A DNA stretch of 64,000 bases from NCBI RefSeq assembly GCF_027921745.1, contig NC_079239.1, forward strand, positions 930,001-994,000, written 5' to 3'. A program made the position numbers and the translations under genes. Within the stretch, counting starts at the first letter, position 1; each line of letters begins with the position of its first letter. Below are positions 57,861 to 58,951 of this stretch, in pieces. Source of the DNA: Schizosaccharomyces osmophilus (Eukaryota). The notes under the pieces are model-generated. The model did no database searches. It saw only the letters and a list, made by a program, of their open reading frames with translations, and was not told where the DNA came from.

Positions 57861-58951
57861 TCAAAATTCAGTTCTTTGGTCATCAAGAGGTTGAAGTTCG
57901 ATTTCTTCGTTCGAATGTCTCTCATCTTGGACATTGAACGATTCTAAATAGGTTAATAATATATTATGAGAGGAATATCTCCAAAGAGTACATACCAAAA
58001 GTACAAGACAAAGCATTTGCTAAACCGCTCATGCCCTTTCCTAAACCGCTTATGCCGCTTACTAAATTCGAATTCATGCTTTCGCGTGCCTTTTGATTTG
58101 CTGGAACAGTTAGAATATATTAAAGTCATACACAACATACTCGTCAAAACAAGAAATAAGAATGTGTTTATTGTGATAAAAATTAACCAGTAAACAGCAG
58201 GGTTCAAATTTTCAAACACTCCGTACTTCTTCAGGCCAAAAGATGAGGCTAAACAGAAGGCATCGAAAACAACTGTATGGAATGCTGCGACAAGCACATT
58301 GCCTATCAATACTTCACACTTTATTGAATTTATTGAATTTATTGCAATTGAATCTAATAGTTAGTCAGTCGTTCAAAATATGGACATCGCTGTCTTACCT
58401 GCTAGAAGCAGCATCACAGATGTAATCGAACCGCCAAAAAGCCCCCAATGGACTTGCGTTTTCACAGGAAACTTGTAGACGAAGAATAGTACATAAAAAC
58501 AAACCAAGGACAAATAGAAGCCGAAAATCAGAATATACGATAGGATTACAAAATTCTCCAAAGCCCTTTTATATTTATAAGCGGATTCTTCAGTGGAAGT
58601 CTGAGCGGATCCATCAGCCATCTCCAAATCAATGAATTTGTATGAATCTAATGGATGTATTAGAAGCAATTCTTTTCGTTGTATACAAAAGGATAAAGGC
58701 GCTGGCCATGTTTGTTGTAGCAATCGACAAGTTTATCAGCCCCAAAACAAACACACAAACAAGATTCGTCCCGTAAACATGCCGTTGCTTAACCATACAC
58801 TTAACCAACTTCTATTTTCTTCCCTATTTGAACGCTTCTTACCTGAATATGGAGGCGGTGTGCCATCTGAAGATTGAATGCCTGACTTTTCATCATTGAG
58901 CGTTTTAAGGGAGGCTTCACAAATTGAAACAGGAGTATAACTATTCTTCAT
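57861..58951 (-). CDS. wtf: wtf-family poison-antidote meiotic drive gene, intact, 5 exons, 252 aa; exons 58951..58843, 58647..58399, 58353..58141, 58100..57996, 57943..57861
   Basis: Four GT-AG introns (195, 45, 40, 52 nt) with branch sites give a stop-free 759-nt frame. The product has an MKNSYTPV start, a PPPY motif in exon 1, DLEM early in exon 2 and about four TM helices. Exon 4 has a 21-bp repeat, intron 1 has a FLEX core, and the gene is flanked by 5S rDNA. Confidence 0.88.
58773..58779 (-). promoter_or_regulatory. FLEX core (TGTTTAC/GTAAACA) in wtf intron 1, candidate Mei4-driven poison promoter
   Basis: Exact GTAAACA on the + strand, with adjacent degenerate AAACAAAC-type tracts at 58744-58762, ~150 nt upstream of the in-frame ATG at 58621. 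Confidence 0.65.

Follow-up and report, generated by a model that had tools for sequence, protein, structure and literature searches.

The locus on the minus strand at positions 57861–58951 of the window (by which we mean the whole 64,000-nucleotide stretch of Schizosaccharomyces osmophilus DNA analysed here) is wtf24 (SOMG_02963), an already annotated and catalogued member of the wtf gene family. It is an intact five-exon gene that encodes its only PY motif in exon 1 and a second in-frame start in exon 2, lies between two 5S rRNA genes and has close paralogs in the same genome. We put at roughly one in two the probability that wtf24 encodes an antidote together with a shorter poison and drives weakly, or with its drive masked, in its own genome.

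Sequence comparison established that the 252-amino-acid spliced product is identical, letter for letter, to XP_056038841.1 / WBW74598.1, the former titled 'wtf meiotic driver' (Schizosaccharomyces osmophilus). A query with exon 2 alone matched two proteins among 34 candidates, the top one at 100% identity. The entry for wtf24 in Table S4 of PMC10085805 (chr2:987,861–988,951, minus strand, manually annotated, with pre8 and mic26 on either side) agrees with the locus in protein sequence, 1091-nt span, strand and neighbours, and comparison with the tabulated entry brought up no differences; in the window, the places expected for pre8 and mic26 are taken by genes for a proteasome subunit and for ApoO/Mic26. 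In a second S. osmophilus strain the syntenic gene is wtf8, likewise 1091 nt long with 5S rDNA on both sides and predicted to be a 'DRIVER' (PMC9562144, Supplementary file 1c), a label based on an intact poison start codon (PMC9562144). Compared by eye, 250 of 252 residues are the same in the two proteins, the exceptions being residue 60 (N in wtf8, Y in wtf24) and residue 166 (S in wtf8, F in wtf24); F166 of wtf24 is invariant in 15/15 aligned relatives. The FLEX-like site published for wtf8, if its coordinates and strand convention are taken correctly, and its counterpart in wtf24 are one base apart in sequence. The original prediction had described the gene as hidden, which is wrong, as wtf24 is annotated in public records and published as a predicted driver. 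Its novelty was overrated too: as a discovery the locus carries little weight, since publications already cover the gene and its name as well as the driver-type structure and the 5S context. The proposed identity as an intact five-exon, driver-class wtf gene is fully supported by the curated record and the homologues. We found no functional test of wtf24 in the open-licence literature, including the accessible parts of PMC9562144, PMC10085805, PMC11892871, PMC10721834, PMC9762604 and PMC13160552.

The predicted gene model proved exact: five exons joined across four canonical introns give a stop-free 252-residue frame, and this predicted splicing agrees with the curated model. The coding sequence is 759 nt long with a single stop, at its end. 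All of the following elements are on the minus strand. Exon 1 (58843–58951), specific to the antidote, carries the start codon and the PPPY motif. Exon 2 (58399–58647) carries the in-frame Met46 at 58621, the predicted poison start, followed by hydrophobic helices 1 and 2, with helices 3 and 4 in exon 3 (58141–58353). Exon 4 (57996–58100), the boundaries of which match the second strain's model, encodes two degenerate units (about 58053–58012) of the 7-aa repeat described for wtf genes in PMC9562144, and exon 5 (57861–57943) encodes the conserved NEEIELQP tail and the stop. The introns measure 195 nt (58648–58842), 45 nt (58354–58398), 40 nt (58101–58140) and 52 nt (57944–57995); each begins with GT, ends with AG and contains, towards its 3' end, a branch-like motif (CTAA[CT]/TTAAC). 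Five exons, a longer first intron and an intact frame, as given by the predicted splicing, fit the five or six exons typical of the wtf family. The transcriptome behind the annotation is reported to be that of vegetative cells. One sequencing run of sparse contigs (X1) has a 150-nt skip (57996–58147), which we rejected as splicing because its ends are non-canonical and intron 4 is kept; we read it as a paralog or another allele. Separately, a 77-codon open reading frame on the minus strand (58954–59187) stops 2 nt short of the wtf24 start codon; it may be a chance frame or may lie inside the 5' leader of the long transcript.

The features of the protein largely bear out what had been predicted from the letters. 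PPPY is the sole [LP]PxY motif of wtf24; it spans residues 32–35 (58847–58858, minus strand), within the antidote-specific N-terminus and hence in exon 1 only, as claimed. This putative Rsp5/NEDD4-family ligase site is kept in relatives, and its function is known from S. pombe Cw9 (PMC10721834). Four lysines fall among the first 45 residues. The in-frame Met46 at 58621, which gives a 207-aa product, was likewise correctly identified and sits within a conserved DLEMADG motif, the structural mark of the driver class. Hydropathy supports the predicted multi-pass membrane protein, with four peaks at residues ~72–92, 105–121, 135–158 and 172–191 and a predicted cytosolic N-terminal tail. An AlphaFold model is helical over the same stretches, at low confidence (pLDDT 46.6, pTM 0.23), and a Foldseek search of the PDB with this low-confidence model gave no match at E <= 0.001. 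Across 69 Wtf proteins, exactly one PY motif is present in 68 and the second-Met pattern in 66, and in 65 the PY motif occurs only upstream of the conserved second Met. A single PY motif and a second Met are therefore marks of the family and not of the wtf24 copy. The original prediction of a candidate active driver agrees with the published 'DRIVER' label, but of the parts cited in its favour the PY motif and the second Met are common to nearly all relatives, and the FLEX match is sub-threshold.

The setting of the gene is equally typical of the lineage. Two 5S rRNA genes, on the wtf24 strand, flank it: one upstream at 59771–59889 (minus strand, Rfam RF00001, 107 bits) and one downstream at 56647–56765 (minus strand). 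They form a 125-nt direct repeat, 98% identical, 3124 nt apart, so that the association with dispersed 5S rDNA characteristic of the wtf genes of S. octosporus and S. osmophilus is present on both sides and on the same strand. The original prediction found the gene but missed this flanking pair, a hallmark of the family in this lineage. According to PMC9562144, 33 of 42 S. osmophilus wtf genes share the 5S setting, and the syntenic site of S. cryophilus has a 5S gene and no wtf; it has been proposed that wtf genes spread into existing 5S genes through recombination, and at another locus a wtf that lay between tandem 5S genes is inferred to have been lost. A tblastn search with 69 proteins, together with a profile search of six-frame fragments, detected no second wtf gene or remnant in the 64-kb window; only 57861–58951 matched. 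We found no wag gene between the upstream 5S gene and exon 1, where the plus strand has no open reading frame of at least 35 aa, and the published table shows no wag at the syntenic wtf8 (PMC9562144).

Past the downstream 5S gene lies a broken gene on the plus strand (55649–56170); the published table has no such entry from pre8 to wtf24. By tblastn, two of its frames match S. osmophilus SOMG_02328, a DUF999/PF06198 protein of 265 aa, at E 2e-17 and 1e-8. The reading is interrupted by stops in frame, by changes of frame and by a likely intron at ~55821–55879, and the first 87 residues of SOMG_02328 are unmatched. Its strand and its place beside a 5S gene fit a wag gene that has lost its wtf partner. 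SOMG_02328 itself (P0076), a DUF999 protein, adjoins another wtf gene. It contains hydrophobic stretches and PY motifs, three in number, and recalls Wtf proteins in its NEEIELQ tail and in a DLEKG motif similar to the one that exon 1 encodes in S. pombe Wtf. We tried homology between Wtf and this DUF999-like neighbour as an explanation and found it unsupported (hhalign probability 6.8%, weak BLAST). If wag is DUF999, wag would have S. pombe relatives, against PMC9562144, which calls wag absent from S. pombe; a link between wag and DUF999 did not appear in the titles or abstract openings among the literature matches listed. Elsewhere in the window, an ordinary gene for the fungal signal recognition particle RNA lies at 8569–8825 (minus strand, Rfam RF01502). 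Two adjacent tRNA genes (12134–12226 and 12058–12129, minus strand) make up a pair (12058–12226) that we take to recall the fission-yeast tRNA-Ser/tRNA-Met pair; the longer one is detected by Rfam and missed by ARAGORN in bacterial mode, probably owing to an intron.

How wtf24 would act can be sketched by analogy with tested wtf systems. The long 252-aa form would be ubiquitinated via PPPY by Rsp5/NEDD4-type ligases and would carry the poison assembled with it out of the trans-Golgi and on to endosome and vacuole. The short, PY-less form (207 aa, from Met46) would be expressed from a start site within intron 1, reach all spores and kill those lacking a matching antidote. PMC10721834 demonstrates the PY-motif mechanism in S. 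pombe Cw9 and also shows that four S. octosporus antidotes neutralise in a ubiquitin-dependent way. The S. pombe drivers (wtf4, cw9 and cw27; PF03303) share with wtf24 the nested antidote and poison (predicted in wtf24), the exon-1 PY motif and the exon-2 poison start. However, they carry at least two PY motifs together with a complete 11-bp FLEX, and their flanks are Tf LTRs, whereas wtf24 has one PY motif and 5S rDNA flanks; the similarity between S. pombe Wtf proteins and wtf24 is remote and covers about the first 150 residues, and identity to the S. pombe drivers is about 10–13% in the published matrix (PMC9562144).

Whether the short form is made in quantity depends on intron 1, the predicted site of the poison promoter by analogy with PMC9562144. 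The FLEX consensus spans 11 bases, and its core 9 bp. As had been predicted, intron 1 contains the forkhead core GTAAACA, once (58773–58779, plus strand), 152–158 nt upstream of the Met46 codon; on the wtf24 strand it reads TGTTTAC, the orientation seen in S. pombe wtf4. As an argument for drive, this motif is weak: it matches FLEX at 8 of 11 positions and lacks the 9-bp core, falls below the published confidence level and, with the 7-mer present in 8.2% of the window's 195-nt stretches, is not more than is expected by chance. The best FLEX match in the intron (9/11) belongs to a set of overlapping degenerate sites (58743–58761, plus strand) that covers the position of the sub-threshold site published for the syntenic allele; its 11-mer has p = 2.1e-5 in the published table. 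In wtf8, too, the best FLEX is a site other than GTAAACA, with p = 1.23e-5 against a confidence cut-off of 3e-6 (PMC9562144). The 11-bp FLEX (Mei4) site that characterises intron 1 of S. pombe drivers is thus missing from intron 1 of wtf24, and of the 31 wtf genes that are intact in S. osmophilus none is listed with a confident intron-1 FLEX (PMC9562144); the species may therefore use another promoter. By subtraction from the same source, short transcripts occur in 14 of 28 intact S. octosporus genes without a confident FLEX (PMC9562144); in that species a short transcript does not depend on the motif, and its lack in wtf24 is compatible with a poison transcript. Because intron 1 lacks a good FLEX site, the poison output of wtf24 is probably low.

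Upstream of exon 1, the picture is different. Two 10/11 FLEX sites are found there (59532–59542, minus strand, its 11-mer having p = 1.8e-6 in the published table, and 59662–59672, plus strand), whereas the S. pombe wtf4 antidote promoter has been described as having no FLEX. This imbalance with the weak intron-1 site is what favours the best placed of the alternatives, unlikely though we consider it: that wtf24 works in practice as an antidote alone and suppresses its own subclade, with a short form that is unmade or non-toxic and a long form that blocks paralogous poisons. S. osmophilus wtf19, which has a driver-type structure and yet a non-toxic poison, provides a precedent. Against this, wtf24 retains Met46, while the lineage's known suppressor-type genes S. 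osmophilus wtf16 and S. cryophilus wtf2 lack a second in-frame Met (PMC9562144), and four of the five non-pombe poisons tested in budding yeast were toxic (one of two in the case of S. osmophilus). At a distance from the gene, four strong FLEX matches (one 11/11, three 10/11) lie at 54109–55864 in a gene-poor stretch from a tRNA-Ser gene to the downstream 5S gene; these and the sites upstream of wtf24 place 6 of the window's 14 matches of at least 10/11 within 5.6 kb. The 54109–55864 cluster could act on a transcript made in meiosis or on a wag-wtf unit that has decayed.

Masking, the second element of the reading that we favour (weak or masked drive), would come from the close relatives of wtf24. 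A search with the full protein gave 67 matches among 520 candidates, every one from Schizosaccharomyces (23 from S. osmophilus, 43 from S. octosporus and 1 from S. cryophilus). In a quick maximum-likelihood tree of 63 proteins (careful search unfinished; midpoint root purely for display; P0070 and six Wtf rows, short or partial, excluded), wtf24 and three other S. osmophilus proteins (P0001–P0004, wtf24 being P0001) are set apart by a long branch with SH-aLRT support of 100. Identity of this subclade to other Wtf proteins is about 40% or less; the published matrix gives 91, 82 and 80% within the subclade and, in the row shown, at most 36.4% to other non-pombe proteins (PMC9562144). Because no tested protein is more than about 40% identical to the subclade, toxicity of wtf24 would be an extrapolation. 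A further subclade relative, P0005 (XP_056036355.1, 176 aa, annotated as a wtf driver), is missing the greater part of exon 2; its C-terminus is shifted, and it is likely a decaying copy.

The three paralogs are XP_056035733.1, XP_056036008.1 and XP_056038692.1. Across this set, the counts of residues shared with wtf24 over the predicted poison region are 193/207, 191/207 and 174/218 (93%, 92% and 80%). They vary in the number of 7-aa repeats in exon 4: P0003 equals wtf24 in this respect, P0004 falls short of it by one and P0002 exceeds it by two. Two paralogs are on another chromosome-sized contig; the antidotes of unlinked paralogs, with predicted poisons 92–93% identical, would probably rescue spores that lack wtf24. 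The poison of a duplicate wtf gene can reportedly be neutralised by the parent gene's antidote. A heterozygous wtf24 deletion cross could thus look Mendelian despite a working poison, because paralog antidotes could neutralise that poison. On the other hand, small changes, for example in repeat number, can break poison–antidote matching (PMC9562144; PMC11892871), and therefore the paralogs may not cross-protect. The original prediction had the anatomy of the gene right but overlooked these near-identical paralogs.

A strong autonomous driver, with ample poison from a non-canonical intron-1 promoter and rescue by its own antidote alone, is in our judgement improbable. In its favour, both strains keep an intact frame, the two proteins differing by eye at 2 positions over 252 aa; relatives share Met46 and the PY motif; the 7-mer is oriented as in S. 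pombe wtf4; and the four close subclade copies are consistent with recent spread. The lack of the 9-bp core and the 11-bp FLEX in intron 1 and the existence of close paralogs speak against it, as do the tested S. octosporus genes. Drive strength in S. octosporus, in 2022 the only one of these species with genetic tools, follows poison transcript level, and of seven genes picked for high poison expression only three drove clearly and two weakly. S. octosporus wtf61 (SOCG_04114), at the syntenic locus, has 18 long and 0 short reads, its poison and antidote activities having been demonstrated in budding yeast. By one comparison wtf61 is 37% identical to wtf24, and wtf25 (SOCG_04480), an established driver, 39%; by another, the two are at 38–40% overall and 32–34% over the poison region. 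All three genes have five exons, a single exon-1 PY motif, a second Met, the C-terminal tail and a 5S association. In the tree of 63 proteins wtf61 clusters with S. octosporus genes, apart from wtf24, and unlike wtf24 it has a wag pseudogene upstream and no upstream 5S gene.

That wtf24 is a partly self-killing allele, its own poison poorly rescued, as reported for S. osmophilus wtf41 (PMC11892871), we regard as very improbable, given the intact PY motif, the four lysines in the first 45 residues and the frame retained in two strains.

As regards family membership, the Pfam WTF model, and indeed any Pfam model, fails to match the full wtf24 protein, and the five single exons gave no WTF match, just a sub-threshold one to Fig1. 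PF03303 (WTF) is matched by 14 of the 63 aligned relatives at E <= 0.1. Run against 1.84 billion representatives, a profile built from the 63 relatives recovered 17 proteins; S. pombe Cw23, a PF03303 member, came last among them, with an E of 1.3e-4. For this link hhalign gave a probability of 96% over 149 columns. The search against Wtf proteins, put forward in the original prediction as its own check, has thus returned both an identical named Wtf protein and a profile link to Cw23. Despite the missing Pfam match, the idea of a gene model spliced together by chance, or of a protein outside the Wtf family, is at the level of sequence already refuted by the identical curated record, the second strain's independent model differing at just 2 residues, the PF03303 matches and the reach to Cw23.

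The wtf24 subclade is a gap in the tested Wtf proteins, because in the literature covered the only S. osmophilus genes with functional tests are wtf19 and wtf41, both about 32–33% identical to wtf24's allele. Its near-identical paralogs constitute a natural test of the identity threshold for poison–antidote matching, and also of the way in which poison is expressed from S. osmophilus wtf genes that have no confident FLEX. It is a doubtful proposition, in our estimate, that wtf24 is an active driver of a fast-diverged subclade restricted to S. osmophilus, its poison made without a canonical Mei4 site. If true, the paralog series, with its 93%, 92% and 80% identical poisons and varying repeats, would define how little change yields an independent spore killer.
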